Shown here piece by piece: positions 5,867 to 49,783 of a DNA stretch of 64,000 nucleotides. Below the pieces are notes generated by a model. It did no database searches, was not told the DNA's origin, and worked only from the letters and a program-made list of their open reading frames with translations. Position 1 is the first letter of the stretch, and each line of letters opens with the position of its first letter. Source of the DNA: an uncultured virus (IMG/VR IMGVR_UViG_3300035520_000621) (taxonomy: Duplodnaviria > Heunggongvirae > Uroviricota > Caudoviricetes); IMG/VR virus record IMGVR_UViG_3300035520_000621; one strand, given 5' to 3'. Made by a program: the position numbers and the translations under genes.

Positions 5867-6208
5867 TTATTCCAGCACCGCTTTGGCGATGTCTTTGGCG
5901 TGGCGGCGCAGGGCTTGCATCTGCTCAAACTCGGCGAGCGTTGCGCTGTCCGTTGGATTTGCAAGGTAGTTGTTGACTACCGCTTGCATCTTGTCTGTGG
6001 GGTATTCCGCTGTGATGATAGCGTTGACTATCGCGTCATAGTTCCATACCCCTGCGTCAAGCTGTACGCGCTTGTAGCGGCATGAGTACGGCTGCTCTTC
6101 GGTCGGCTCTACCGCCTCTGCATCGTAGTTGACCGTGCGCCTTTTCAAACCGAGGTGATTTTGCACCTCTACGGCTTCGGGAGCGTGGTCTGTGTATATC
6201 CATACCAT
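5867..6208 (-). CDS. Hypothetical phage protein
   Basis: 113-aa ORF between RT and holin. Confidence 0.7.
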   Translation of the reverse strand: MVWIYTDHAPEAVEVQNHLGLKRRTVNYDAEAVEPTEEQPYSCRYKRVQLDAGVWNYDAIVNAIITAEYPTDKMQAVVNNYLANPTDSATLAEFEQMQALRRHAKDIAKAVLE

Positions 6209-7643
6209 ATTCCTTTATCTCCTTTCTTAGTAAGTATAAATTGAAATTATAATCGTTTTTCACCTTTACCACGTCATAGTCACGTGTGTAGCAGACGCAC
6301 CAAAACACCTTGCACTCGCGCTGAAACAAACGGCGGCGCAAGCGGTAAGACGAGCAACCGCGCAGGAAACCGAGATAGCTGTTCAGCGCACTAATCAAGT
6401 GGCGCAGACTGCCGAGTAAGTCAGCGTTTACTTCGCCTTGCGTCATAGCGCAACATAGCGTTTCCGTGCGGCGCAGTGCGTCAACAAACCCGCCAACGGT
6501 GCGATTGCTGATATAACGACGGTGCGGCTTAATCACTTGTCCGACAAACTTCACGCCCTTGCTGACGTGTTGCAGATAGAACTTATCGGGGTGCATCGTC
6601 AGGTCATAGCGTTGCAATTCGCGGCGTAGCGTATCACGTAGTTGCAGACAAAAGTCCTTGTCGCGTGAGATAGTGCAAATGTCGTCAACAAACTGTTCCA
6701 ATGCCGAGCCGTGTTCGCGCACCAACGTCAGAATGTCGGCAAGAACATGACTCATTAGGAAGTTAGCGGCAAGTTGGTTAATGATATTGCCTATTGCTGT
6801 GCCGTGGTCTTGGTCGCGGTTGTATAGCGACTTGCTTGGGTTGAGGCGTTCCCACATTGCAAGCGGACTGCGGCGTATCGCGTCATGCTGTGGTCGATGC
6901 AGCACCGTTAGGCGCGTCAGATATAGCAATACGTCTTTGTCGCTGTCGTGATATTCTTCGATGATTAGCCGTTCGAGTAATTGCCATAGAATACGCACAT
7001 TGATGCTTGTGAAGAATGACTTGACATCCACCTTGCAGATGTAAGCGTCGCGTGTGTATTGCTGTGTGATATTCCATACGTCACGCTCTACGGCGGCGAT
7101 TGCCGAACTTGTGCCGAACCCCTTGCGGCAGTTGTGGCTGATATTTCCTTGCGCACGATGTCGTGCTTCAAACAGTGGTGTCAGCCGTTGACATATCCAC
7201 GTCTGCACAATGCGGTCGCGGAAGTTGGCAGCAAACACTTCGCGGTATGTAGGTCGCGACACGATGAAGCACGTACTCGGTCGCGGCTTGTAGGTATTAG
7301 AATAAACTTCATCAATCAATCTATATAAGTCCATTTCTGCATCGGCGGTGCGGTAAGCCGAACAATCCGCCGAGCCTTTTTTCTTCTTGCAGTATTCCTT
7401 GTATGCTGCTATCCAACCTTCTTTGACTTTATCTTCTAAGGCTGCCACCGCCCTCACCGCGTTAGTGTTACCCTTGTTGTTGTTGTTGATGTTCGCTGAT
7501 GAGAAGTTCGCGTACCAAGCGTTGCTCTGCGAATAGGACGATGATGCGTACGCTGATTTCTTAGCTGACTCGCTCGCTCCGATTAAGGTATCAAGCTCGT
7601 TAGCGGTACGCCCATTAAATAGTATAAAGTCATTTGCAACCAT
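6057..7643 (-). CDS. DGR reverse transcriptase (ORF includes the TR in frame at its 5' end)
   Basis: REVFAANFRDRIVQ, CRKGFGT, KVDVKSFFTSI, GTAIGNIINQLAAN, FVDD, LTMHPDK, KGVKFVG; adjacent avd and TR/VR pair. Confidence 0.95.
   Translation of the reverse strand: MVANDFILFNGRTANELDTLIGASESAKKSAYASSSYSQSNAWYANFSSANINNNNKGNTNAVRAVAALEDKVKEGWIAAYKEYCKKKKGSADCSAYRTADAEMDLYRLIDEVYSNTYKPRPSTCFIVSRPTYREVFAANFRDRIVQTWICQRLTPLFEARHRAQGNISHNCRKGFGTSSAIAAVERDVWNITQQYTRDAYICKVDVKSFFTSINVRILWQLLERLIIEEYHDSDKDVLLYLTRLTVLHRPQHDAIRRSPLAMWERLNPSKSLYNRDQDHGTAIGNIINQLAANFLMSHVLADILTLVREHGSALEQFVDDICTISRDKDFCLQLRDTLRRELQRYDLTMHPDKFYLQHVSKGVKFVGQVIKPHRRYISNRTVGGFVDALRRTETLCCAMTQGEVNADLLGSLRHLISALNSYLGFLRGCSSYRLRRRLFQRECKVFWCVCYTRDYDVVKVKNDYNFNLYLLRKEIKEYGMDIHRPRSRSRRGAKSPRFEKAHGQLRCRGGRADRRAAVLMPLQARTA
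7441..7546 (-). repeat. DGR template repeat (TR)
   Basis: 106-nt gapless match to 8121-8226 with 13 mismatches, 12 at TR adenines; 9 AAC codons. Confidence 0.97.
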
Positions 7644-8113: not shown

Positions 8114-11100
8114 TTAGAATGCTGCCACCGCCCTCACCGCGCCAGTGAGACCCTTGCTGTAGTAGCCGATGCTCGCTGATGAGAAGCTCGCGTACCATGC
8201 GTAGCTCTGCGAATAGGACGATGATGTCCAATACCAAGCGTTGCTGAGCACGGAAAAACGTGAGGCAGCGAATGGTTTAGCAAAGATAGCATTTTCTACG
8301 GAATTATCATAACCTTTTGCATGATAAAACAACAAGCGTCCTGCTTCGCCGCCGGAAGGTAAGAACCACATACCCGCACGGAATTTGTCCGCTAACGTTT
8401 CGCTTGCCTTAACCGTAGGTTCGTAGGCGGCACAGAGTGATGCGGCGGGGTAATAGTACTCGTTGCCGTTGCTGATTTGCTTGTCTACAGCGGTCATTAG
8501 CAGTTCAAGGTTGGCGTACAGCGACATCCCGCTTGTGGCTGCGGGTACGGGCAGATTTACGCCGCTATCGGTCAAGATTTTGTCGCGGTGCTTGACGATT
8601 TTCAGAGTGTTGGCACGACCCCACGGAAGTTTCTCACCCGTAGCGTAACCGGGCAAGTCAAGTTCGATTGCGTAGCGTCCGAGTTCACCAAGTGCGTATT
8701 TACTGTTCGGTACAACGGCAAAGCCGTCGGGTTGTGACGAGTCGATGTATGCCGAGTTTTTCGGCTGCGGTGAGCCGCTCTCTTTGTTTACCAACCCCGC
8801 GACGTCCTTGCATGAGTATGCGGGGTCGTCTGTCAGTGTCGGGTTGTTGTTATAAAGACCCCACTTGCGATTGCTCTGAATGTCGGAAAGTGCCACCATT
8901 AGGCGGTCTGCCTTGTCGTTGGGGTTGATGTAGAAGCAAATACCGATAACGGTCTTGCCCGTATCGAGAATGTCGGAACTTGTGCCGTCATAGTAGACGT
9001 AATCACCTACGGCACAATCGCGCTGATAGAAGTACACCGTTGCCGATGCGGTCAGCTTGGTGTCGTCCGACATTGTGACTTCCACCGTAGCTACGGCACT
9101 CGGCTTGTCGTCTGACGTGCCTACCTTACTGACTGTGATAACGCCCGTGGCTGCATCTATCGTAGCGTAGTCGTTCTTGGCGAGCGTCCACTTCACTGCC
9201 TTAAAGGTATTGCCGTTGGTGACGTTAGGCACAACTTCAAGTGAGTACGTGCCTATCGCGCCATAGTAGTTCGCGCCCGATACGGTGACGGAAGTAAACG
9301 CTATCTGCTTGTATGATACGTACAGCGCGTTATCCGTGGAGTCTACGTTGCCCCATGCGGCGAGCATCTTGGCTTTCAGAGGTGCGCCCACTACGGCATC
9401 ACTTGCCATTGCAATCACGCCCGTAAGTTCCGCGCCGATGTCGGCAAGTTTCTCAACGGTGTCGGCTGTCACGTCCGACCAATTTGCGCCCGTGATTTTC
9501 ACGGTTTCGAGGTCTGTGGCGTTGTCGATAGCCGCCACAACGATAGGCTGCGGATTGAGTGACGGACAATCTGTAATGACGATTGATGAGATGTTCTTGT
9601 AGCCTTGGATTTCCACATCAAAGAGATTGCGACAGCCGTTGAAATTGATTTTTGTCAAAGTCGCAGGAAGTGCAACGGTGAGAAGTGTATCGGTAGCGGG
9701 TACGGTCAGCAAAGTCACTGACGTGTCGCGCAGGTCTACGTTTTCAATTTGCTCCGAGCTGATTGCGATTTCAGTAGCTACGTTAGGGCAGTTGCAGATA
9801 ACGAGTTCTTTCAGCGCGATGCTGTTGCTGATTTTGGCAACGTTGTCATTGAGCTGAGTGTTGGGCGTTGCGCTGTCGGAATAGTCCACGATAAGACGTT
9901 CAAGACGCTTGCAGTTTTCGAGGTTGTTGATACGGATACCACCGTCGGCAAGGTCTTGCAAACCGTGTGTAGTCTTAACACCGTCCTCTTCACTGTACGA
10001 GCTGATTTCAGTAATTAAGTCGGCATCATAGACGGTCACAGTTGTTTCGGTGTATTGCACGCCCTTTGTTGAGGCGAAATAGCTCGGCGAGTTGGGCGTG
10101 ATTGCGCGTTGGGTATTGGTACCGCCCGCACCCCAATTCATAGAGGCATACAGCGGATAAGCGTATTTGACGCATAAGCCGTTGCCGACCGCGCTGCCCC
10201 ACAGACGAAATTCAAGAGGCTTGGAGTTGTTCGCACCACACTTGCTGTCAAAGTAGCGTTGACGGTATTTGAGATAGTGCCGCATGACTTCGCGCTTGTC
10301 ACCGTGTGCCATGTCGAATTTGCCCGTATTGGCATAGCCCATTCCGTCAGCGTTATAGAGTGCCTCACACCATTGCGACCAAAACGAATTGTACAGCGAC
10401 CACATATCGCTCTCGTTAAGTCCTGCCGTTTGCATTGCGGCATACATCGTATTGATGTCGCTTCCCCATGCTTGCGCTACGCAATCCCACAACCCCGACA
10501 AACGCCCATTAAATACCGCCTCGCCTGCTGTTGTTACAACTGAGTATGTGCTGCCGTTGTAGGTTTCGCCCGACACTACGCCCGTGGTTTCCGTACCGCT
10601 GTCGTAGCTGTCGCCCCACTCGTGATATACCTTGAATGTCAACGCACCCGAATTGTTGTAGCGGAAGCCGGTATCTGAGTCACGTTGAGCAAAACGAGCA
10701 AGCGGCTTGCCTGATGCGGTGTTCTCGAACACGATAGTCATGTTCTTATCCATTGAGTCTGTTCCCAACGTGTAGGTGAAATAGATAAAGTAGAACAGCG
10801 CGGACTCTTTGACGAGATAGTCGGCATATTCGGCGTTGAACTTGGCAATGCGGTATTCGGGGGTGTCGCGGTCATACGTCACAGAGCCATAGGTTACGGA
10901 CTGCGCCAAACGGCGATATTCGCCCTGCCCTGTTTCGGCTTCCGTTTTCAGATAGTAGCGTTTTGCGATAGTGGGGTTGCACGAATACACCCAATTGTGA
11001 AAGCGTCGCAACCATTGTGTTTCCGACCTCGCGAGGTCTACCTGTGTTTCTGACTTGGCAACACCGTACTTGCGCCCCGTGCCGTCGGGAGAATAGCGCG

Positions 11101-26500: not shown

Positions 26501-29375
26501 TTACCAATGTGCGGACAGCTTGCTCTTGTGCGCCTGTGAGACCTTTCACGAAGTCAAAGCCTTGTTGCGATAACGTAGATTTGACATAGTTTACCCACGT
26601 AGTGATATCGGGGGCTAATTTGTCAAAATCCTCGAAAGCGTTTTTTGATTTATCTATATAGTCAAACAGCACCTTTGACTCGGCAACCATTTTATACAAT
26701 GGTGAAAATACCTTATCCGATGATGCTGAAAGCGTACGATAGAATTGTCTAAGTATATTCAGTTGCTCAGACAAAGATTTACCTTGTGCCTTCTCCTTAA
26801 ATTCAGGGTATTTATCGGCAATCTTTTGGAGCAAGTCTTGCAAGGAAATACCTTCCGATACCGCATCTTCCTCTGCCTTTTTCATCTCCGCCATTGCCGC
26901 AGAATAATCGTTGATGTTCTCAACCAACGAGTCATCAAACCAACCGTCAGTTTTGTCGTTGGCGTTCATTGGCAACTCGGCGTTTTGAGCAACAATGCGT
27001 TGCGCTTCGTACAAATCAAGTATAGCTTGGTGGAGTTCTTTGAATTGGGTAATCAAATCCTTTGTGCCACTTGTGTCTCCAAAGATACTTTCAAGTACAT
27101 TGCCTGCTGCGGGGTGGTAATCCTTAATAGTTTGTACCATCTCGTCAATGGCTGCGCGGATTTGTTCGCGCGTCATGCTTGGCAAGTTTTCAAGTGAGTT
27201 AGTTGTTAAGCTCTCACCTAAATTCTTAAATGTTTCGTTGGCTTTTTGACGTAGATTTTCAGTTTCCTCTTTGGCTTCTTTAACCTTTTCTTTGTACTTC
27301 ATGAAGGCTTCAACCGCAAGTGTAATGCCTGCGAACCATGCAAGTGAAGGTAGTGCTTTAGCAACACTTGCCCGTGCATCGCGCATTGCATTGCTAAATT
27401 GTACCCATGCAATTCTCCAACGATTAGCCGATGCTGCTTGCAGACGCTCTGCTTCGGTAATCATCTTGATGTCTACTAGATATTTAGCTTGTTGCGTTGA
27501 GAGCTTTCTCATTGCAATTAACTGCAACGCTTTTTCTTTAGTGAGTGCGCCACTTGTAATTGCCGCTTGAATATCGTAGACTATTTGTTTTTTTGAATTG
27601 GTGAGTTGGTATCGTTCTACGGCTGTTAGTTGGCGATACGTAGCCGCAAGCCTTATCTTTGCCGCCTCAGAGCGTTTTGTTGCTGCGATCTCCGTGCCTG
27701 TGGCTGTGGCTTCTGCCATTAAACCTTTAGTAAGTAAATAGCTTGCAGCCTTAACGACACCATAAGTACCTGCCGCAACTACCATTGCAGCTGCAACCTT
27801 GCCCCAATTCTTTGTAAGTGAGATGAGGATATCGGCAACGCCCTTTAATGGCGTTGAAAGTGACTCTGCTAAGTCACCATACATCAAGTCGAGTGCATCC
27901 TTTACAAGTTTCCAACGTGTCTTTACCGAGCCTGATAAGACCTCTTGCATATTGTTGAACATACCACCTTCGTCAGTTAAATCCCACAAGACATCTTTTA
28001 CCATGTCGAATGAAATTTGCTTTTTGGAGATACGTTTCATTACTTCGGCAACGCTGACAAATTTGCCTTCCAACTCGGTGAGTTTTTTAGATAACTTGTC
28101 GTAGATAGGAATGTTGGCGTAGGCGAATTGTTTTGCTTCAAGACCGTCAAGGAACGTGCGGTTTTTAGTCTTGCCATAAGCGAGGATGAGGCGTTGCATA
28201 TCCACACCCGTACCTGCTGATATATCGGCAAGGCGTTTCATTGTGTCGTACAATTCGTTGTAAGGTACAGTGAATGCAGAGAGCTGCTTGGCGTATTGGT
28301 TCAAGTCCATTACACCAAACGGTGATTTCAATGCCAATGAGCGAATTTCGCTGAACAAGTCTTGTGTCTTGCCTTTGTCTTTTAGGATAGCATCAAGCGC
28401 GAGGCGTTGGTGTTCCAATTCACCACCGATGTCGACAACTTTGCTTAAGAATTGCTCTGCCGCATATACGGAATAAAGCGATAAGAATTGGTCTTTGAGT
28501 TGCCCTGCAACGCTGATATTAGAACCCAATGCACTATGTAAACGAATACTTGCGCCCGTGTGTTCATTAGCTGCGTCGCGAGCTTGCACGTGTGCCGCCC
28601 TGACTTTTTGAAGTGCGGCTTGTGCATCGCGATAACGTTGCATGGCTTGCTCTGTCTTCGCCTTCTCAGCTAATAAATCGCTTTTTGTGTATTTGCCGTT
28701 CCAAGACACAGCTTGTTGCAAAGCCATTTGCACCGCTTGCGTAGCTGATGCCTTGTCTACAACGATGTTGATTTTGAATGGGTTTTGCCCCAATGTTGTT
28801 TGTATGTCGTTGCGAATATCAGACTTGTCAAAGGTGACTTTTAGCTTAGAGTTTGTTTGTAGAATTTGTTGAAGCTGTTGCGACAACGTAGGTACATCAA
28901 CGGTGAGTTTGAGCGTATGCTTAACCCCGTCAATAGCCATTTTGATACTATTTGATAACTCTGCGACATTGGCTGTTGCATTAACCTTATATCCCTTTGT
29001 GGTGAGTATGTTCGTCAATTGCTGACCTAACACAGTTGCGTCAATTGCTGTGGAGATAGGGTATTTCTTTGTACCGATAGCCTTTGTAATGCTTTCAGCC
29101 AACTCCGTAGCAATTGCTGTAATGTGCGCCGTGTATTGTGTATTGTTGATTGCGGTTTGCAACTGCTGCGTATTGAGTTGCGTGCCGATACTTGCAATAA
29201 ACGTGTTCGCTTTCAACAATGTCTGAATATCCCTAATGAGAGATTGCGGGTCTTTGAGTTTGACTGCAATCTCCGCATTGAGGTCTCTCAGCAATTGCTG
29301 TTTTATGTGGTTCTTCTGTGCGGCTGTTTCGTCCTTCAGAAGTATGTTGAAATATAAATCACCTAAGTTAGCCAT
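23520..29375 (-). CDS. Tail tape measure protein
   Basis: 1951 aa, helical, ALKSPF...KQLSAF...MKRLADIS tape-measure domain; follows tail chaperones. Confidence 0.92.
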   Translation of the reverse strand: MANLGDLYFNILLKDETAAQKNHIKQQLLRDLNAEIAVKLKDPQSLIRDIQTLLKANTFIASIGTQLNTQQLQTAINNTQYTAHITAIATELAESITKAIGTKKYPISTAIDATVLGQQLTNILTTKGYKVNATANVAELSNSIKMAIDGVKHTLKLTVDVPTLSQQLQQILQTNSKLKVTFDKSDIRNDIQTTLGQNPFKINIVVDKASATQAVQMALQQAVSWNGKYTKSDLLAEKAKTEQAMQRYRDAQAALQKVRAAHVQARDAANEHTGASIRLHSALGSNISVAGQLKDQFLSLYSVYAAEQFLSKVVDIGGELEHQRLALDAILKDKGKTQDLFSEIRSLALKSPFGVMDLNQYAKQLSAFTVPYNELYDTMKRLADISAGTGVDMQRLILAYGKTKNRTFLDGLEAKQFAYANIPIYDKLSKKLTELEGKFVSVAEVMKRISKKQISFDMVKDVLWDLTDEGGMFNNMQEVLSGSVKTRWKLVKDALDLMYGDLAESLSTPLKGVADILISLTKNWGKVAAAMVVAAGTYGVVKAASYLLTKGLMAEATATGTEIAATKRSEAAKIRLAATYRQLTAVERYQLTNSKKQIVYDIQAAITSGALTKEKALQLIAMRKLSTQQAKYLVDIKMITEAERLQAASANRWRIAWVQFSNAMRDARASVAKALPSLAWFAGITLAVEAFMKYKEKVKEAKEETENLRQKANETFKNLGESLTTNSLENLPSMTREQIRAAIDEMVQTIKDYHPAAGNVLESIFGDTSGTKDLITQFKELHQAILDLYEAQRIVAQNAELPMNANDKTDGWFDDSLVENINDYSAAMAEMKKAEEDAVSEGISLQDLLQKIADKYPEFKEKAQGKSLSEQLNILRQFYRTLSASSDKVFSPLYKMVAESKVLFDYIDKSKNAFEDFDKLAPDITTWVNYVKSTLSQQGFDFVKGLTGAQEQAVRTLVKTLVDSAKEASPEIRAEIEKQLLEKFNISVSVDFEGSEKAIEQWKERLKQSLQGKYDTVVNAAADYASVIDSVRKAHKEAKEEAEKLKPVLIKAGISFTPGKKITGLSVMTPRNQEIAEQYNEYIDKIDAAVAGANTEGFSLETEKQQRAAAKQAESALTKRLKERLSLLKSAYSEYQRWTELVGKDAALQKLKESNVYSALFSDKNFNIEELRTNIVSIVKQAKAALKDTSAQSFARQGEEELLKFDYDETKKQLDETKQAIEKFVSDTTDQWGLYYDILNKTGNKSYAKLAFSKTGIWDETAKTMRDKLEQEMSKFNIGDKIINWDMDSAEAKAFFNNNEALLKLYQEIQKQIRANARTMLTEGATAIASQYDKEEQIKVLEQQIQTIRDQYKDESILPEGEEARIQQIQSQIDELKSDLFSLSPLYQQIFGSMKYQDWGAVNKSANRAKELVKNAVGKNFKNGKPSIYRSFYMDGNEKKEVTLTESLLKKLRDSLDGFFDTKVEKNPFSTLFSSIDNLKKLYKSTEKDVDKGKAWREVGASFAACAEQIAQISNSFQEMFEVLGDESAAKAMETVSFVAEGAAAIVQGFASGGVYGGIAAAVTVAVNGLTKIFSAHQAVLEKLIKQSEQRVAQIEMISDAIDRLLERSLANYTTIRPASLDDDIAKLAEYTDRLKELDDAIAKGYHPSVGDTERSDIEANIARYTERIKAYQSGGIYAYQRQLLQDELDEKKAQLAALEKEKGDKTDEINEVTADIEELEDQIIDYAEETADSLYGINLKDWASQIGDALLDAWQKGEDGARAFNDTVADIMSDVVSNVLKLGVIQPALEKLQTMLFGEDGMSGMFGKDFALDETEIKTIADYLIGIRDKTDAYYEYLDQIEDYMKKNYGISLKDDDSSGMTKSIQGVTEETADLLASYINAIRADVSVKREYIRQIVEDYMPRFSVIVEAQLRQLEAIAINTENNAKAAEEIKDLLSSNITTGKGFKIA

Positions 29376-42702: not shown

Positions 42703-42929
42703 AGGATGTGCCTTTTAGATGTTGCAAATATAGTCAAAAATACCAATAATTTCGCAGTTTTTACCTAAAAAATTAAAGTTATATACACAACAAAGAATAA
42801 TTAAGAAAATAACAAAGTATTGATAATAAACGTATTAGCGGTTTTGGTTTCTTCGTTTGTAGTCGTTTTTACGTGCAAATTTTCAAGATAAAATGTTGAT
42901 AATCAAGCGTGTATAAAAAAATGGAAAGT

Positions 42930-43170
42930 ATCCATGTATATAAAATGTATATAAATCGCTTTGTAACTCATTGATTATCAAGCAAAATGTATATAATGTA
43001 TATAATGTATGATAAAAAACTTTTATATATAATTTACTATATTTTTCTTTTTTACGACAATATATCATACATTATATACACTACTAACGTAATATATTGA
43101 TATACATATAATTATACGTTAATTTATATACATTAATATATACATAATAGGTACATTTTTATATACATAG
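42930..43170. repeat. AT-rich region with ATGTATATAA repeats, candidate replication origin
   Basis: Direct copies at 42934, 42945, 42987, 42996; inverted copies at 43124 and 43159. Confidence 0.55.
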
Positions 43171-43467
43171 TGGAATTTTAGGGGTGTGCAAAAAAGTTGC
43201 CCAGCTAACAAAGTACTGCGAGAAGGGTGTCTGACGCGGTTTTGGAGTAAAAAAAATAAAAAAATAAAAAATTTTGAGGGATGCTGACTGTGTTGTATAA
43301 CGGCGTATGTGGGGGGGGGGTGGGGTAGGCTACGCTTACTGGCTAACGTTAGGCGATATCTATCTCCCTGTCCCCGTCACATTCGCGTGGGGGCGGAATT
43401 TTTTTTAACATTTGGGTTAATTTTGGTTTTATATTTAATGTTATACATAGTAATATAAAGTCATTTT

Positions 43468-43965: not shown

Positions 43966-44397
43966 TTTGATGCCGATTTATTTATTCGTTTCGTTATTGG
44001 CAAAGATATGAAATAAATCGCTACTTGCCAAACTGCCGGCGGTGTTATCTCCTTTGCTCGTCAGTGGCGGCGAGTGCTGCCATGAGTGGCGGCGTTATGT
44101 TGATGGTTTGCGATGATCGCAGTTCTTGCCGGTTTTCTTGTTTGATCCGCTGCCGGTCGTGGTTATCTCGATGCCGTTTGTAATACATAATCATACCTGT
44201 TGCGCTGTCATACACTGTTATCTTTGTGCGTGGGTTAATCTCCTGAATATTAGTTGGTTAAATAGTGTTAATTGGCAGAAAATAGTTGTATTTTTACTTG
44301 CTTTTTTTTGTGGGGTCAAAAGATTTTCGTACCTTTGTAATACAGAAATCAACCGTTAAACGGTTGGTAGTTTACTAACTTATAAAGCAAATCAATT

Positions 44398-44628
44398 ATG
44401 AAACGTTTATTTAATTCAATCCACAGCGACGATATTATTTCTCTTCTCGTCTGCCTGTTCGGTGGTTTCGTACTCGTCGCCGTCTCATCCACTTACTTCT
44501 CGTTGGCTACGAACTCAGCACAACTCTTCACTGCGTGGCTATCAGCTTTAACCGGCTGTTTCGTTGCTGCCCTCGGTCTGATTATCGCAATCGTTAACAC
44601 TGTTGACCATTATAAAGATAACAAATAA
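44398..44628 (+). CDS. Small two-TM membrane protein
   Basis: Two hydrophobic helices; first ORF after the TACCTTTG promoter element near 44330. Confidence 0.6.
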   Translation: MKRLFNSIHSDDIISLLVCLFGGFVLVAVSSTYFSLATNSAQLFTAWLSALTGCFVAALGLIIAIVNTVDHYKDNK

Positions 44629-44639
44629 ATACAACCATC

Positions 44640-44885
44640 ATGGAACACACTGAATTATATAATAGGTTGATTAAATGGTTAGACGAGGAATTCGCCACCG
44701 TTGAGGACGTAAAGGAATGGTTTAAAATCTCCGATGCCTACCATGTTGTAACAGACAATAGCGTAAGGGTTGCTTATCTCGTGAAAATTGGCGGCGGCAC
44801 ATTTAAACAAGTGGCAGCATTTAACGCTGAAATCGTCGATTTATCCGACATCGTTACGGTATTCATCGACTTATCAAGTAAATAA
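44640..44885 (+). CDS. Hypothetical protein
   Basis: 81-aa ORF with A-rich leader. Confidence 0.65.
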   Translation: MEHTELYNRLIKWLDEEFATVEDVKEWFKISDAYHVVTDNSVRVAYLVKIGGGTFKQVAAFNAEIVDLSDIVTVFIDLSSK

Positions 44886-44966
44886 AAAACGCGCTGCCGG
44901 TGTACCCTCTCAGGCTCGCCGGCAGCAAAAAGTCAAATAAACAAATAGTTTATTAGCTTATAAAGC
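44884..44966 (-). ncRNA. Candidate antisense sRNA to early-gene 5' UTRs
   Basis: Minus-strand TATCTTTG (44972-44979) with TTG 20 nt upstream; GCTGCCGG/CCGGCAGC stem plus T6. Confidence 0.6.
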
Positions 44967-45010
44967 GACGGCAAAGATAATAAATAAAAGTCAAATAAAC
45001 AATATAAGCA

Positions 45011-45958
45011 ATGAAAAACGAAACAAATTTAAAAAGCGACGTTTACACAAAGGTAGCTAATCGCCTGCTCGAAATCATGGATAAAGGGCTAATTCCATGG
45101 CGCAAACCGTGGCGCGGTGTCCATGGTGAGATATTCGCCGGTTGCATCTCCTACTCCACCGGTAAACCTTACTCGCTCCTTAATCATGTGTTATGTGAGT
45201 TTCGCGACGGCGACTATATCACATTCGCGCAAGCGAAGAAGCTCGGCGGTAACGTCAAGCGCGGCGCAAAAGGTTACCCCGTTGTATTTTGGTCGTTCGT
45301 CGAAAAGGATGCAACAGACCAAGACGGAAACAAGCGATATAACGAGCGCGGCGAGGTCGTCAAAGCGTCTTACCCTGTTTTAAAGTGGTATCATGTCTTT
45401 AACGTTGAGGACTGCGAGAATATACCGGCAAGAAAGAAATCAGGCGTTAACGCCGGCGATGATACGCCCGCCGTGGAACTTGACCCAATCGAAGCAGCCG
45501 ACAAAGTGGTATTTGATTACGTGGCAAGAGAAAGTATCGCGTTACATATAACCAAATCTAACGATGCATATTATAGACCCTCGGATGATAGTGTAACAGT
45601 ACCGGAGCTCTCACAATATAACGAGGTTAGTGAATATTACGCCACCCTCTTTCACGAGCTGACGCACTCAACCGGTATTAAAACCCGTTGCAATCGCGAA
45701 GATATGCAAAAGATTAAATCATTCGGCGATGCAAGTTATTCGCGCGAGGAACTTACCGCAGAAATGGGAGCGGCGTTTATACTCGGTTATCTCGGCATCC
45801 AACAAGATAATACAATGACAAATAGCGCGGCATATCTCCAAAGCTGGAAATCAGCAATCAAAAACGACCCCAAGTGTGTTGTCCTCGCTGCCGGTCGTGC
45901 TGAAAAAGCGGTTAACTATATCCTTAACGGCAAACCTCAAGACGATGAAACGATTTAG
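45011..45958 (+). CDS. ardC: ArdC-like antirestriction protein (ssDNA-binding plus zincin-like domain)
   Basis: IPWRKPW, GKPYS..N, TFAQAK..GG.V..GAKG, VFNVE, HELTHSTG, Y..EEL.AE. Confidence 0.92.
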   Translation: MKNETNLKSDVYTKVANRLLEIMDKGLIPWRKPWRGVHGEIFAGCISYSTGKPYSLLNHVLCEFRDGDYITFAQAKKLGGNVKRGAKGYPVVFWSFVEKDATDQDGNKRYNERGEVVKASYPVLKWYHVFNVEDCENIPARKKSGVNAGDDTPAVELDPIEAADKVVFDYVARESIALHITKSNDAYYRPSDDSVTVPELSQYNEVSEYYATLFHELTHSTGIKTRCNREDMQKIKSFGDASYSREELTAEMGAAFILGYLGIQQDNTMTNSAAYLQSWKSAIKNDPKCVVLAAGRAEKAVNYILNGKPQDDETI

Positions 45959-46153
45959 TCTAACAACTCATGTTATTATCCCGGTAATAATCACCGGGAT
46001 AATAGCCACAGCGGCGGCGGCTGTCTATTACGGCTTATACTCATACGCCTGCAAGCTCGTTATTATCGCTGCTCCGTGCGTGTTGCTCAATCATTTGCAA
46101 ATAAAACTAAACAATAAACAAACAAATAAATAGCTTATAAAGCATCCTTAACC

Positions 46154-46411
46154 ATGACAAAAGAAGACTTTATTAAAAAATGTATGGACTGCATCCCTAC
46201 CGAAAAATGGGTGCAATTTCGTATCGAGAGTGTGTTATATAACAGCCACATCAATCTTGATAACGTCCCCAATGATTACCGCGCGGTATATCCTTTGATG
46301 GCTGCCATTTTTGAGTGTGTGGCATCTGATATGATTAACGGCGGTAGTGACAAACAAACCAACGATAAAGCAAACAGACTCAAAAACAGACTCAAAAAGG
46401 TGATTTGGTAA
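46154..46411 (+). CDS. Hypothetical protein
   Basis: 85-aa ORF with A-rich leader. Confidence 0.65.
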   Translation: MTKEDFIKKCMDCIPTEKWVQFRIESVLYNSHINLDNVPNDYRAVYPLMAAIFECVASDMINGGSDKQTNDKANRLKNRLKKVIW

Positions 46412-46497
46412 CACCTGATAATAGCTCCGGGGTGTCCTCAGGGCATCCCGGAAAGAGATAAAAAAGCAAATAAACAACAACAAATAAACATAATACT

Positions 46498-47190: not shown

Positions 47191-47261
47191 CTTAATAAAT
47201 AACTAATCAGGCGGGGCGGCTGCTTCTGTGGCTGCTCCTCCTGAAACAAACAAATATAACT

Positions 47262-47489
47262 ATGAAATCAAATGAAGAATTGAAAGTGTCTTACAAGATG
47301 CGCAAAGCGATTGAAAGACTTGTAAAGAAATACGGTGAACTACATACAAGTTACCGAATTGAAGACATCGCAGAAAATAGGCATAACGTCAATTATTACG
47401 ACTACTGCGATATTACGATGGACTTCGTATTTCTTAAATGCCGTGTCGCTTATGATGGCACCGTTACCCCTCTTGGATTTGTATATTAA
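47262..47489 (+). CDS. Hypothetical protein
   Basis: 75-aa ORF after a GC-rich hairpin. Confidence 0.65.
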   Translation: MKSNEELKVSYKMRKAIERLVKKYGELHTSYRIEDIAENRHNVNYYDYCDITMDFVFLKCRVAYDGTVTPLGFVY

Positions 47490-47767
47490 TTAATAAAAAA
47501 TACTATCATGGAACGATATATTTATACAATCGAACGAAATGTACATGAAAGCAGCCATATTACCGGCTGTAATATTGCAAGCTTCGATAACTTGCATTTA
47601 TACAGTTGTATAAAAATAGCCCGTATTACAATACTCCTGATATGGAGTATCACAACACCGAAGACGATCCCGACAACGATATTTATATAACTTGTTTGCG
47701 TATGTTTCCGTGGATCTTGGGGCATCTCATGTAAATTATCACTTAATTAGAGGAATGGTTTAAACTC

Positions 47768-48049
47768 ATGGAACAAAAAATCATCTACACCATCAGCTTG
47801 TTTATCCGACCAAATAGGCATGAAGACGCCGGAACGCGCAAAGAGTTGATTAATTTCAACTCATTCGCTAATGCTTGCAATTACTTGCACAACTTGCGCG
47901 TGCAATGGTTTAAGGTCCCCTCCAAACCTTCCTTATATAATCGTTACGATGAAATATCAGATTATAAAAACTCCTCATGTGTGATGCGTGAATTATACGA
48001 CCCGTTTAACTCTCGCGTATCTTATGAGTTAGTTAGAACGCCCAAATAA
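47768..48049 (+). CDS. Hypothetical protein
   Basis: 93-aa ORF. Confidence 0.6.
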   Translation: MEQKIIYTISLFIRPNRHEDAGTRKELINFNSFANACNYLHNLRVQWFKVPSKPSLYNRYDEISDYKNSSCVMRELYDPFNSRVSYELVRTPK

Positions 48050-48068
48050 TAAATAATATAATAAGACG

Positions 48069-49586
48069 ATGAAGCAATTTAAACAAACCTTCCAAACGTG
48101 GTTATTAAGCCATGTTAGCGACTGCGCTGCTGCTCTCGGCATCATGCCGGGGCAGTGCGTGACGGCTAAAACTTTCGACTTTGCAAAGTACAAGTTAAAA
48201 GACAATGCACTCGATATGCTAACATTTGAGTATGACAGTTATACGGCATCCTTCCCGGTGTGTCGTGTGTTTAATGTGTTGTTTCAGCTCGGATACAAAA
48301 AAGAAATCGTGGTTAAACAAACGATTGACAATGTTACGACTAATAACGTTGTTGCTGATGTTGATATGCAGCTACCCGACCTAACTAAAGTGAAATCATG
48401 CTTCTGTGATTGGTCGGAAACGTACAATTGTATCCATATAGACTTATTGCATGGTGCTATCGTAGCCTCCAATCGCCAAGTGATAAAGTATTATCATGCT
48501 CCGTTGTTGTCCACACACAAACAAGATTATCGTTTTGGCACGATTGACAAAAAAGATATCCAGGCATTAAGCAATCAGAGAGTGCGCGTAATCGTTGACG
48601 AGGTTGTAACAAACAATTATATTACATACATCATTACGGAGGATGGCACATTGTATGCTCATGGCTACGTTGGCAGACCTTTTGACTACAACTATGTTTT
48701 TAGGCATATAGCCTATAATCCGGATGATGCTGTTATACTTGACAAGTCAGGATACAAGCAGCTCTTAGTTGTTAAACCTGCACCCAAAGCAAATCACGTT
48801 GATAAAATGGTTATTGTCAAATATCAAGACGGCGAGATTACGGCAGAATATAATGATACAAACTTAATTGAGACCACAAAGCGCACTATTACAGCGGCTA
48901 ATAATCCCGACGTGCATTATAACGGTAATATCGAGATTAACAATCTCGTGTCGCTTAAAGAGTTTCAAGCAGATAAGTTGTATTTTGCTGATGACTGTTA
49001 TTTGTTGGCAACCAATAAGGATGGTATATTTGTTTCGGCTGTCCATGGCTGTCGATGTGATACTAAAGCGACAAATAACGCTATCGAGCTAATTGAGACC
49101 GTTTCAGGCGATGAAATCATTAAAGTTGCGGAAGTTATCACGACATTTACAGAAGTCGCTGAAATCGCAATAAAACGCGCTCAATTGACAAACAAAGCAA
49201 ACGAGTTACGACAGCTCGCAAAGGAAGCCGGCGTAAGTCTTACAGATTTATTTCCTGAGCTTACACAAGCCAAACAAGAGCAAGAGCCAATACCATCTGT
49301 TAATTGTACCAATGATGCTAATTTGTCACAAAATGACAAACGAGCAAAAGCAAGAGTAAGGCGATGGCACCGACATAGAAGTTTACAGCGTATCGGACAA
49401 ACAAAACGGAGAGTTGTAAAAGCTTGCAGCAGCCGGATATCTCACTTTGTGGTTAAAAATGCGGTTATTGCTCCAATTGTCAAGACCGCACCAAGACCGC
49501 CGACAATAAAATATCATATAATCCGACAGCCAACAACCGGGAAACCCGACTATTATATGCAAACAACAAAAAAACGCTTAAAATGA
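48069..49586 (+). CDS. Hypothetical protein, possibly with a beta-clamp-like domain
   Basis: 505 aa; GAIVASNRQVI and GRPFDYNYVF loosely recall the DnaN ATDGHRL and G.FP.Y..V motifs. Confidence 0.6.
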   Translation: MKQFKQTFQTWLLSHVSDCAAALGIMPGQCVTAKTFDFAKYKLKDNALDMLTFEYDSYTASFPVCRVFNVLFQLGYKKEIVVKQTIDNVTTNNVVADVDMQLPDLTKVKSCFCDWSETYNCIHIDLLHGAIVASNRQVIKYYHAPLLSTHKQDYRFGTIDKKDIQALSNQRVRVIVDEVVTNNYITYIITEDGTLYAHGYVGRPFDYNYVFRHIAYNPDDAVILDKSGYKQLLVVKPAPKANHVDKMVIVKYQDGEITAEYNDTNLIETTKRTITAANNPDVHYNGNIEINNLVSLKEFQADKLYFADDCYLLATNKDGIFVSAVHGCRCDTKATNNAIELIETVSGDEIIKVAEVITTFTEVAEIAIKRAQLTNKANELRQLAKEAGVSLTDLFPELTQAKQEQEPIPSVNCTNDANLSQNDKRAKARVRRWHRHRSLQRIGQTKRRVVKACSSRISHFVVKNAVIAPIVKTAPRPPTIKYHIIRQPTTGKPDYYMQTTKKRLK

Positions 49587-49783
49587 AAAATAAAACACCC
49601 CGACCAATAAAAACCTTCAGGGTCACGACAAACTCGGAGAATTATTTGGCGTATCTCCGAGCGCGTATCCCGAATTTTGAGTTAACGGCATATCTAAATA
49701 AGCTGATATATCAAGAGAGTATTGACGATCAATTGTACAATCCCCAAAGAGATTACAGGAGGCAACAAGATGATAACGCTTAA
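49583..49783 (+). CDS. Small putative RHH-like DNA-binding protein
   Basis: 66 aa, IKTFRV followed by two helices; coupled to both neighbours. Confidence 0.5.
   Translation: MKNKTPRPIKTFRVTTNSENYLAYLRARIPNFELTAYLNKLIYQESIDDQLYNPQRDYRRQQDDNA

Follow-up and report, generated by a model that had tools for sequence, protein, structure and literature searches.

A predicted small antisense RNA gene in the early operon of a relative of Bacteroides LoVEphage

The window analysed here, a 64,000-nt stretch of DNA from an uncultured virus (IMG/VR record IMGVR_UViG_3300035520_000621), carries capsid, terminase, portal and tape-measure genes and comes from a temperate tailed phage of gut Bacteroidales that is kin to Bacteroides LoVEphage. 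The two share 67% amino acid identity in TerL and 41% in the primase, together with synteny and the rightward early promoter, in which the 19-mer TACCTTTGTAATACAGAAA occurs exactly at the equivalent position in LoVEphage. A tRNA search found none. The features of the early operon to which the analysis refers are the following.

44307..44337, plus strand: P_right, the rightward early promoter, TTTG-N19-TACCTTTG, from a motif scan, with a predicted start near 44343
44350..44366, plus strand: small 5'UTR hairpin CAACCG-TTAAA-CGGTTG (fold -10.6 kcal/mol, z -4.2)
44368..44388, plus strand: predicted target 1, 21 nt within the orf76 5'UTR, 19/21 to the RNA template and ending 9 nt before the ATG
44398..44628, plus strand: orf76, small hydrophobic protein without family match
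44640..44885, plus strand: orf81 cassette, without family match, missing from the close relative
44884..44969, minus strand: predicted antisense small RNA of ~83-86 nt, from sequence signals and fold
44893..44926, both strands: GC-rich hairpin with an 18-nt loop on a 9-bp stem (7 G-C pairs), followed on the minus side by a 2-3-nt spacer and T6
44928..44944, plus strand: 17-nt copy A, an exact repeat within the RNA template
44946..44966, plus strand: 21-nt template of the predicted RNA 5' end, an orphan of the orf76/orf85 leader motif with no start codon after it
44972..45002, minus strand: predicted small-RNA promoter from a motif scan, TTG at 45002-45000, N20, and the -7 box TATCTTTG at 44979-44972
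44986..45002, plus strand: predicted target 2 at the start of ardC, copy B, a 17/17 match that stops 8 nt short of the ATG
45011..45958, plus strand: ardC, anti-restriction gene with ArdC-N and zincin-like peptidase domains
46113..46143, plus strand: predicted target 3, in the orf85 leader, 26/31 in blocks of 10 + 13 nt and ending 10 nt before the ATG at 46154
46426..46452, plus strand: intercistronic hairpin, -22.1 kcal/mol on the plus strand versus -14.7 on the minus strand
46461..46490, plus strand: candidate target 4, weak, in the A-rich leader of orf230, which contains two copies of CAAATAAACA
47207..47244, plus strand: intercistronic hairpin, -28.2 kcal/mol on the plus strand versus -14.5 on the minus strand

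The gene at 45011-45958 has the domain make-up of an ArdC anti-restriction protein, its predicted product containing both the N-terminal ArdC ssDNA-binding domain (PF08401, 1.9e-23, 83.4 bits against a cut-off of 22.6) and the C-terminal zincin-like metallopeptidase domain (PF18818, 1.4e-32, 112.9 bits against a cut-off of 27.5), and it also matches PHROG 7245 at 2e-74.

The 125-nt spacer 5' of ardC appears to house a gene on the opposite strand, whose 3' end falls directly after the orf81 stop codon. A first-pass annotation of this DNA had described a minus-strand unit here, and its parts are found in the expected order: a promoter of the form TTG-N20-TATCTTTG, a 9-bp GC-rich hairpin and T6 (44889-44884), with 82 nt between the -7 box and T6 and, at the sequence level, a defined 3' end at a putative intrinsic terminator. 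The -7 box and its flanks match the leftward promoter region at 43999-44017 in 17 of 19 positions, including TATCTTTGCC, which occurs four times in the window, three of them intergenic. Folded as RNA, the 89-nt minus strand reaches -29.9 kcal/mol (z -3.7), and the predicted transcript, with its 5' end expected at 44966-44969 and its 3' end at 44884-44889, opens with an unpaired 5' tail, followed by a central hairpin (AAUAAAC-UAUUU-GUUUAUU), a linker rich in U, a terminator hairpin and U6. Units of promoter, hairpin and T-run are rare: a search of 128 kb of real sequence gave 10, at ~7 promoter boxes, versus a mean of 0.5 in 40 Markov simulations. A scan for sigma-70-type promoters was uninformative for this host type (19 found versus 16.9 expected). 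The promoter, hairpin and T6 are well read as a small minus-strand transcription unit, although two details count against an antisense reading, namely a -33 element consisting of TTG only and a GCG spacer between the hairpin stem and the T-run.

The hairpin at 44893-44926 escaped a standard terminator scan, its loop being longer than 8 nt. Its two strands fold equally well (-24.1 versus -23.6 kcal/mol), and on the plus strand it is followed by A-rich sequence that offers no terminator reading. The two other GC-rich intergenic hairpins pointed out in the first pass, at 46426-46452 and 47207-47244, are real and fold far better on the plus strand, which identifies them as mRNA features rather than minus-strand terminators; the stem of the former is kept in the close relative L001 through a U.G-to-U-A change. 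Since the other operon hairpins are clearly plus-stranded and the one at 44893 is equally stable on either strand, the latter may serve the mRNA as well, and the idea that it is a dedicated minus-strand terminator is weakened. Rfam 15 returned no match at gathering score across the whole window and none at E up to 1 in 44300-45100. Two metatranscriptome runs contain 6-9% of the sampled words of the window and yield seven unstranded contig pieces at depth 2-4, none of which delimits the small RNA. One RNA-library contig passes through the 44893 hairpin, joining 44564-44622 to 44880-44970, and fits plus-strand read-through or DNA equally. The contig end at 44970 and the uncovered stretches are uninformative at depth 2-4.

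The template of the predicted RNA recurs along the operon, and every repeat that had been reported there was recovered, in numbers above chance. AAAAGTCAAATAAACAA is present exactly at 44928-44944 and again at 44986-45002, just before the ardC ATG at 45011, and at up to three mismatches it has 4 matches in 64 kb versus 0.54 expected, a count that 0 of 100 shuffles reached. TAGTTTATTAGCTTATAAAGC (44946-44966) agrees with 44368-44388 at 19 of 21 positions, where no such match is expected by chance. TAGCTTATAAAGC has exact copies at 44954 and 46131 and a copy with one mismatch at 44376; at up to two mismatches there are 8 matches versus 1.83 expected (0/100 shuffles reached 8). The four exact copies of CAAATAAACA in the window all lie within 44934-46490 and, as sequence, are generic A-rich Bacteroidales leader.

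By the position of its gene inside the operon the predicted RNA is fully complementary to the early-operon mRNA at its own locus, and its unstructured 5' half is also complementary to three sites beyond that locus, before orf76, ardC and orf85, each ending 8-10 nt before the start codon. When start regions were ranked by ungapped score, and local duplexes were compared with shuffled controls, these genes took the first three places among 128 start regions (ardC 37, orf76 36 and orf85 35; mean 16.2, sd 4.5), all in one operon, and their predicted duplexes (-20.7, -23.7 and -25.1 kcal/mol, respectively) compare with -8.5 +/- 2.7 kcal/mol for shuffled RNAs. The orf230 site scored 27 (z 2.4), with a duplex of -15.3 kcal/mol. 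In a whole-window RNAduplex scan, which was swamped by long-loop artefacts, the trans sites were not distinct by energy alone. Of the several targets initially proposed for one RNA, those before orf76, ardC and orf85 stand out clearly, and orf230, with its CAAATAAACA copies, is a weak fourth candidate, generically A-rich and diverged in the close relative. These trans sites, as the three best of 128 start regions with a common distance to the start codon, are hard to reconcile with a minus-strand RNA that is real but acts at its own locus only, through convergent transcription against P_right or RNase cleavage of the duplex in the orf81-ardC spacer, the similarity of the leaders being incidental. 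Such restricted action is considered rather improbable, though the perfect 86-nt complementarity to the operon mRNA, which holds by construction, would serve it, and two more minus-strand -7-like boxes within the 5' end of ardC, kept in the close relative, would be the source of longer cis-antisense transcripts across the start of ardC.

The close relative L001 has no difference from the window across the small-RNA region 44884-44969 (100%), whereas the flanking genes are 92-95% identical, with differences at 49 of 948 columns in ardC and 21 of 258 in orf85. It keeps the small-RNA promoter apart from a 1-nt deletion after the -7 box. The orf85 site in L001 has a 4-nt insertion and a G-to-A change that is not compensated, and the orf230 leader has diverged there with the RNA template unchanged. 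L001 also lacks orf81, precisely, through a deletion between AAATAAA repeats (joint 44622/44880), and the window segment 47420-49582. Losses of this kind are what would be expected if early genes and their A-rich leaders were gained and lost together by recombination at short A-rich junctions, in which case the repeats would be relics of gene-cassette shuffling, the orphan copy a lost gene's leader and the minus-strand signals fortuitous. The uncompensated drift of the orf85 and orf230 leaders fits this account, as do the LoVE-like loci L227 and L229, in which an extra gene has been inserted with a duplicated leader element, and the generic nature of such A-rich leaders in Bacteroidales: a search of 401 sampled Bacteroidales genomes found short A-rich matches only, and 13 of 17 weak matches cover only the A-rich stretch before the ardC ATG. 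What it leaves unexplained is that the orphan copy is flanked by a 17/19 promoter and a hairpin with T6 in the right order and spacing, that LoVEphage, L203 and Dulem virus 40 share this arrangement despite unrelated sequence, and that single-base changes appear in both copies together in the LoVE types B2 and B3 described below; an origin as relics is therefore judged unlikely.

Because the one close relative found for the window type is nearly identical over the small-RNA region, no co-variation can be read for the window's own RNA. An ArdC search of IMG/VR gave one locus of window type and one of genome and metagenome collections gave none; the 72%-identical ArdC P0002 as query returned distant loci only, a primase search one short contig, and blastn against phage records no close kin of the window type. 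Short-motif scans of IMG/VR gave mostly chance matches among those listed, and of the 18 loci found by an 18-mer promoter scan of genomes, 17 were judged from their flanks to be chance.

The strongest backing for the antisense reading comes from comparison. LoVEphage, a third lineage (L203) and Dulem virus 40 each carry in this operon a minus-strand unit of promoter, hairpin and T-run whose sequence is unrelated to that of the window. In LoVEphage (MW660583.1), where 11.5 kb were searched on both strands, just one such unit was found. It is encoded on the minus strand within the spacer that comes first in the rightward operon, has its -7 box at 10803-10810 and its T-run near 10718-10723, and would yield an RNA of ~80 nt. 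Its sequence repeats 18 nt of the 5'UTR exactly and, at 17/18, a stretch of the start region of the gene that follows. The minus-strand units of L203 and of Dulem virus 40 (TerL 58%) lie over the first gene's 5'UTR, an overlap with its leader that would suit action at the unit's own locus; Dulem virus 40 has no exact repeat, so purely cis action may be enough in some relatives. Four further loci, L257, L259, L261 and L238, share the promoter core and show no unit within the flank examined, and may be unrelated elements. The LoVE-like L227 likewise shows none within its 800-nt flank, where the extra gene pushes the spacer beyond the flank. The LoVEphage operon that bears the module is without ardC, which argues that the module belongs to the operon and not to the anti-defence genes. 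Read from these sequences, the RNA module belongs to the LoVEphage-like phages as a family, with ardC as cargo at the 'second gene' position.

Co-variation, which the first-pass annotation had named as a check on its proposal, is positive among LoVEphage relatives, in which the 5'UTR site and the copy in the RNA gene have changed together in three separate steps. In the set of 30 LoVE-like loci that hold both sites, 29 are concordant and one, L236, is discordant. Type A/A is represented by 6 loci, A/A1, with one change that gives a G.U pair, by 4, B/B by 13, B2/B2, with T-to-A in both copies, by 5, and B3, with T-to-C in both copies and otherwise imperfect, by 1. Cognate pairings are predicted at -32 to -35 kcal/mol and A-by-B crosses at -12.5 to -17. 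Variation is concentrated in the UTR site, the 5' hairpin of the RNA and the terminator, and the promoter and linker are invariant. RNAalifold finds compensatory double changes in 5 of 28 pairs of the LoVE-like RNAs, which are not independent events, since the A-to-B difference is a single split. In 6 of 9 unique sequences, one of the terminator pairs reads G.U on the minus strand and would be A.C on the plus strand; counted against the antisense reading is the variant L241, in which a terminator pair is broken on the minus strand and intact on the plus strand. Also against it, the start-region motif of LoVE-like loci varies without compensation, for example in PV4-TP1. The LoVE leader motif TAAAYTTTG, which lies 4 nt before the ATG, might instead be a promoter for leaderless mRNAs. 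That the LoVEphage 5'UTR site still co-varies with the RNA copy at a distance of ~370 nt from the RNA gene is a further point against action confined to the RNA's own locus.

A concerted change at two sites is also what a switch in the immunity specificity of a protein would produce, and the repeats could be binding sites of a phage protein, either DNA operators or mRNA sites such as those of antitermination (nut-like), that co-vary to fit that one protein. The 13-mer among the repeats does hold a small palindrome, GCTT-ATA-AAGC, and the sequence CTTC(C)ACA, common to the 5'UTR hairpin loops of LoVEphage, L203 and Dulem virus 40, resembles a protein-binding loop. The two LoVE copies, however, lie in different structures, one in a large 5'UTR hairpin loop and the other in the arm and loop of a tight 5-7-bp hairpin, which argues against one RNA-binding protein reading both, and the concerted single-base changes and the G.U pair of type A1 are predictions of RNA pairing. 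No regulator gene is recognised beside the sites, where orf76, orf81 and a 165-aa leftward protein are all without family match, and a protein site would leave the minus-strand promoter and terminator unexplained. Protein binding has little chance of being the correct account.

The explanation that comes out ahead, with confidence a little above even, is that the spacer 5' of ardC holds the gene for an ~85-nt small antisense RNA acting on the early operon. The RNA would be read from its Bacteroidales-type promoter on the minus strand and would end at the hairpin and U6. Pairing would most likely block translation initiation, or else trigger cleavage or termination, and RNA that has accumulated, or that is already present in a lysogen, would damp or shut off the early operon, ardC included. 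So understood, the small RNA is probably an antisense regulator of the early operon and a variant of the immunity-type antisense RNAs of phages. An anti-defence role for it, linked to zygotic induction, can only be inferred.

Among the nearest known counterparts is the sar RNA of the P22 immI region, a small antisense RNA that is transcribed against its operon from a promoter of its own, in the spacer ahead of the gene it regulates, ends at a terminator and is complementary to the ribosome-binding region. At the motif level the window unit resembles sar in having its own promoter opposite to the operon, in the early-operon spacer before ardC, a putative terminator and complementarity to a start region. 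Sar has a single overlapped target, no repeated trans sites and an enterobacterial sigma-70 promoter, whereas the template of the window RNA copies leaders 58 to ~1200 nt away and its predicted promoter is of the Bacteroidales TAnnTTTG type. The c4 RNA of P1/P7 and the CI RNA of P4 are each one small RNA that acts on at least two short repeated sites on its own early transcript and co-varies with them between phages; P4 CI acts by transcription termination. The repeated targets of the window RNA and the co-varying specificity types A, B and B2 of the LoVE-like loci resemble this pattern. Both, however, are cut from a same-sense transcript and have targets that are inverted repeats, while the window RNA has a convergent promoter and targets that are direct repeats of its template, so that a complementary RNA can come only from the opposite strand. 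The window RNA would thus work like the c4 and P4 CI RNAs and, on its sequence, is not a member of their family.

Lambda OOP, CopA/CopT and RNA I/RNA II are short structured antisense RNAs with intrinsic terminators and loop-loop specificity, of which LoVEphage is reminiscent in that a conserved RNA loop UGUGGAAG faces CUUCCACA in the 5'UTR hairpin loop. These RNAs are strictly cis-encoded with one target, whereas the window RNA would pair through a single-stranded 5' tail and one hairpin arm, with no kissing loop. Conjugative plasmids show zygotic induction of leading-region anti-defence genes through single-strand promoters on the incoming DNA, and by analogy the phage might express its ArdC-type anti-restriction in a brief burst as it enters the cell and then shut it off; the plasmid mechanism differs, and in contrast to plasmid leading regions, the element is a tailed phage and the RNA module is also found in relatives without ardC. 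Within the same host group, a transcriptome atlas of Bacteroides thetaiotaomicron annotates intrinsic terminators and cis-antisense RNAs (PMC10994844). The antisense and intergenic small RNAs of that species share the kinds of signal considered here but are chromosomal regulators, unlike the window RNA. Literature searches found no such RNA described for LoVEphage-like phages.

A broader model is put forward tentatively, as possible but short of probable. It holds that LoVEphage-like phages, which rank with the most frequent temperate phages in human gut Bacteroidales, rely on a small convergent antisense RNA to determine immunity or early shut-off, that leader pairing sets exchangeable types (A, B, B2 and others), and that cargo such as ardC joins the system by copying the pairing sequence into its start region. 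LoVEphage is reported from ~8% of 1,241 gut viromes (PMC12629997). Gene regulation in temperate Bacteroidales phages is almost uncharted, and the model, if true, would give a handle on early-gene timing, on the exclusion of relatives by lysogens and on the restraint of constant expression of the ardC cargo; it would also signify that RNA-based phage immunity, so far known from enterobacterial phages, reaches a distant phylum with different promoters and translation signals. Experiments are feasible in cultured LoVE-type phages with known hosts, BI-TP1 (Bacteroides intestinalis BG4) and PV4-TP1 (Phocaeicola vulgatus BM8).

The window is a temperate tailed phage that encodes a major head protein, large terminase, portal, tape measure, DGR-type reverse transcriptase, ParA, primase/helicase, RecT/exonuclease and two integrases. 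Its nearest named relatives are the Bacteroides phages LoVEphage, BI-TP1, and PV4-TP1 (TerL 67% and primase 41% at the amino acid level), with which it has in common the order terminase, portal, primase, and divergent early region; Dulem virus 40 is a remoter relative (TerL 58%). A motif scan of the window shows promoters of the Bacteroidales type, composed of TTTG, about 20 nt, and TAnnTTTG, the consensus in the Bacteroides literature. Two elements of the early region are central here:

44307-44337, + strand: P_right (TTTG-N19-TACCTTTG), the promoter that drives the rightward early operon
44884-44969, − strand: candidate small RNA, in the spacer upstream of ardC

The operon runs in the order orf76, orf81, ardC, a 62-aa membrane ORF, orf85, orf230, more small genes, and an integrase at 49722, and the ardC product carries ArdcN and MPTase-PolyVal domains (Pfam). 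The P_right 19-mer TACCTTTGTAATACAGAAA is exact in both the window and LoVEphage.

The first-pass annotation described a minus-strand promoter, GC stem and T6 terminator in the ardC spacer, and these signals are present as sequence motifs. The putative promoter, TTG-N20-TATCTTTG with its −7 box at 44979-44972, is followed 82 nt downstream by a T6 run behind a 9-bp stem with seven G-C pairs, and the predicted RNA, which has no Rfam family, would form a short stem at its 5′ end, a hairpin in the middle, and the terminator (fold energy −29.9 kcal/mol, z −3.7). The 44893 hairpin is equally stable on both strands and thus does not alone choose between them. The GC-rich hairpins previously noted between the genes are all real, though the two others lose 7-14 kcal/mol on the minus strand and are therefore plus-strand RNA elements. 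TAnnTTTG occurs 69 times on both strands of the window, so that the presence of a box on the chosen strand of a particular 125-nt spacer is, by arithmetic, only about a 1-in-15 event. The box of the candidate RNA and its flanks are identical at 17 of 19 positions to the phage's own leftward promoter, and the extended −7 box TATCTTTGCC is found four times in the window, at 44008, 44979, and 53246 (minus) and at 27654 (plus); three copies stand between genes, pointing at minus-strand genes or at the candidate RNA, and the fourth is antisense within the tape-measure gene. A box followed after 35-130 nt by a perfect stem and T-run gives 10 matches from about seven boxes in the real window and averages 0.5 matches over 40 first-order Markov simulations, a comparison that overstates the rarity of the unit because real genomes hold more hairpins than such simulations. 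The RNA template (44884-44969) bears leader motifs that are not followed by a gene and is unchanged in L001/L188, an IMG/VR contig that is the sole close relative of the window's type and whose neighbouring genes are 92-95% identical. The likeness to the leftward promoter, the rare combination of box, stem and T-run, and the unchanged orphan-leader template raise the odds of a minus-strand unit above chance. Two further minus-strand TAnnTTTG boxes (45024-45031 and 45048-45055) lie near the RNA promoter within the first 45 nt of ardC, both kept in the related contig, one with a substitution at an "n" position; longer antisense RNAs over the ardC start codon could start from them.

The repeats that had been reported in the leaders are all present at the coordinates given, each above chance. 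The 17-mer has two exact copies, and its number of matches at up to three mismatches (four) was reached by 0 of 100 shuffles; the 21-mer occurs a second time at 19/21 where the chance expectation is nil, three copies of the 13-mer are present with no more than one mismatch, and the four exact copies of CAAATAAACA in the window all fall within 44934-46490. The first 44 nt of the RNA were scored for ungapped complementarity to positions −40 to +6 around the start of every ATG ORF of 60 aa or longer (128 start regions; mean 16.2, sd 4.5). The earlier claim of a multi-target RNA is supported for ardC, orf76, and orf85, which score best (37, 36, and 35) and whose sites each stop 8-10 nt upstream of the start codon. 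Local duplex energies are −20.7 (ardC), −23.7 (orf76), −25.1 (orf85), and −15.3 kcal/mol (orf230), compared with about −8 for orf81 and orf75 and −8.5 ± 2.7 kcal/mol for shuffled RNA. As a target, orf230 (score 27, fourth of 128) is doubtful, since A-rich leaders like its own are generic in Bacteroidales and it differs in L001/L188 at 24 of 88 columns with the RNA template unchanged; the orf85 site has drifted there likewise, having gained 4 nt and changed a G to A without compensation. That the RNA is real and acts in cis only, these distant matches notwithstanding, is decidedly improbable.

The same layout is found in related phages. In 11.5 kb of LoVEphage scanned on both strands, there is a single promoter-hairpin-T-run unit, a minus-strand one that occupies the rightward operon's first spacer and is made up of TTG-N20-TAACTTTG, about 80 nt, and a hairpin with T5. 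An 18-nt segment of the P_right 5′UTR, about 370 nt off, recurs exactly in its template, which also has a 17/18 copy of the sequence directly upstream of the next gene's ATG, in which the single difference would be a G.U pair; two more LoVEphage genes are preceded by similar motifs. The unit is identical to that of the window in layout but does not resemble it in sequence, and the link to ardC is incidental, since LoVEphage has the RNA module without ardC. A 30-aa hypothetical ORF annotated across the hairpin and template (L197:4190-4282; MW660583.1 10689-10781) is probably not a gene. In a third related lineage (L203) and in Dulem virus 40, the 5′UTR of the first rightward gene is overlapped by minus-strand units in which a hairpin and T-run come after a TATCTTTG/TAACTTTG box, and L203 has a 15-nt exact repeat whose second copy is 10 nt upstream of the ATG. 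No such unit was found within the flank scanned of L257, L259, L261, and L238, which have only the promoter core in common, or within the short flank of the LoVE-like locus L227. In a Paraprevotella MAG (L205:2500-2745), the promoter core TACCTTTGTAATACAGAA lies upstream of about 230 nt without an obvious ORF that end in a strong hairpin and T7; they probably encode a non-coding RNA of the host, expressed from a consensus promoter. Given these loci, the promoter alone is no marker of relatives.

Co-variation between UTR and RNA, named in the first-pass annotation as a check, is seen in the LoVE-like relatives. The LoVE leader start was found at 30 IMG/VR loci, which with four phage records make 34. 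Of these, 30 have both a 5′UTR site and an RNA-gene copy; in the other four, L227 and L229 among them, the spacer is outside the flank or the layout is another. Site and gene copy are both of type A in six loci and both of type B in 13. Four are A/A1, with a T-to-C change in the gene copy only that gives G.U with the unchanged UTR; five are B2/B2, with CTTCCACA replaced by CTACCACA in both copies; and one is B3, with T-to-C in both copies, a 1-nt deletion, and an edge mismatch. Only L236 is discordant (UTR type A, gene copy type B). The 29 of 30 concordant loci thus represent three concerted steps (A to B, B to B2, and B to B3) in lineages, not 29 independent events, and the 16-18-nt repeats are probably too short for ordinary gene conversion. 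The repeats could instead be protein-binding sites, which we consider very unlikely. Predicted RNA-UTR duplexes reach −32 to −35 kcal/mol for cognate pairs and −12.5 to −17 for A-by-B crosses. Variation over the 500-nt LoVE region clusters in the UTR site, the RNA 5′ hairpin, and the RNA terminator, and the promoter, linker, and start region of the next gene are nearly invariant. RNAalifold, run on nine unique LoVE RNAs, shows five of 28 pairs kept via two-sided changes, each of which separates type A from type B; L241 breaks one pair. Most wobble pairs that bear on the strand point to the minus strand (pair 60-89, G.U in 6/9; GUCAC/GUGAU and the A1 variants); the L241 variant favours the plus strand. 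The LoVE types keep an RNA loop, UGUGGAAG, opposite CUUCCACA, which is exposed in a 5′UTR hairpin loop; classical kissing antisense pairs have this loop-to-loop geometry. No second type of the window's own lineage was found in IMG/VR, genome and metagenome collections, or 401 Bacteroidales genomes, so that the case from co-variation is built on the sister lineage and the common architecture.

Two gene cassettes of the window are missing in L188, 44623-44879 (orf81), deleted exactly between AAATAAA repeats at gene boundaries, and 47420-49582 (three genes including a 505-aa ORF). Such indels at A-rich junctions, together with the uncompensated leader drift in that contig, favour an explanation of the repeats as relics of cassette shuffling accompanied by fortuitous signals, which we regard as unlikely. 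About 560-620 nt past P_right, L227 and L229 show an insertion: a further gene of about 160 aa stands behind the 5′UTR, and a second exact 18-nt target copy, again within a hairpin, precedes the old first gene; the target thus travels with cassette insertions.

Somewhat better than even, in our judgement, is the reading of the unit as a convergent antisense small RNA. Besides its own locus on the early mRNA, it would pair with the orf76 leader and the start region of ardC, and probably with the orf85 leader, and would block initiation or trigger cleavage or termination. It may serve to shut expression off after entry, to confer immunity in lysogens, or to do both. Like P22 sar, the unit has a putative convergent promoter of its own and a start region as predicted target; with P1 c4 and P4 CI it has in common repeated predicted targets and, in its LoVE-like relatives, co-varying specificity types, whereas their defining feature, same-sense processing, is absent from it. 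Term searches of the text of the LoVEphage paper (PMC8525569) and of the Nature 2025 temperate-phage paper (PMC12629997), and full-text literature searching, found no description of such an RNA.

Two gut metatranscriptomes contain 6-9% of sampled words of the window and yield seven unstranded contig pieces of depth 2-4 along it. One contig joins 44622 to 44880, the relative's form without orf81, and continues through the hairpin to 44970; it could come from plus-strand read-through, from a minus-strand RNA that reads through, or from DNA.

Elsewhere in the window, a second candidate small RNA (2033-2105, + strand) lies in a spacer between minus-strand genes, with TTG-N20-TATATTTG and a 10-bp hairpin plus T7 55-57 nt downstream. 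The reverse transcriptase (6057-7643, − strand; PHROG 1423, 1.3e-51) adjoins very large tail or fibre genes, which suggests that it is part of a diversity-generating retroelement; LoVEphage reportedly has one. Between the primase operon and a 165-aa gene (42880-43180 and 43250-43330), an AT-rich stretch holds many TATATACA/ATGTATATA iterations and is followed by long A runs and a G10-rich tract; replication might begin here, or the region might serve packaging or attachment.
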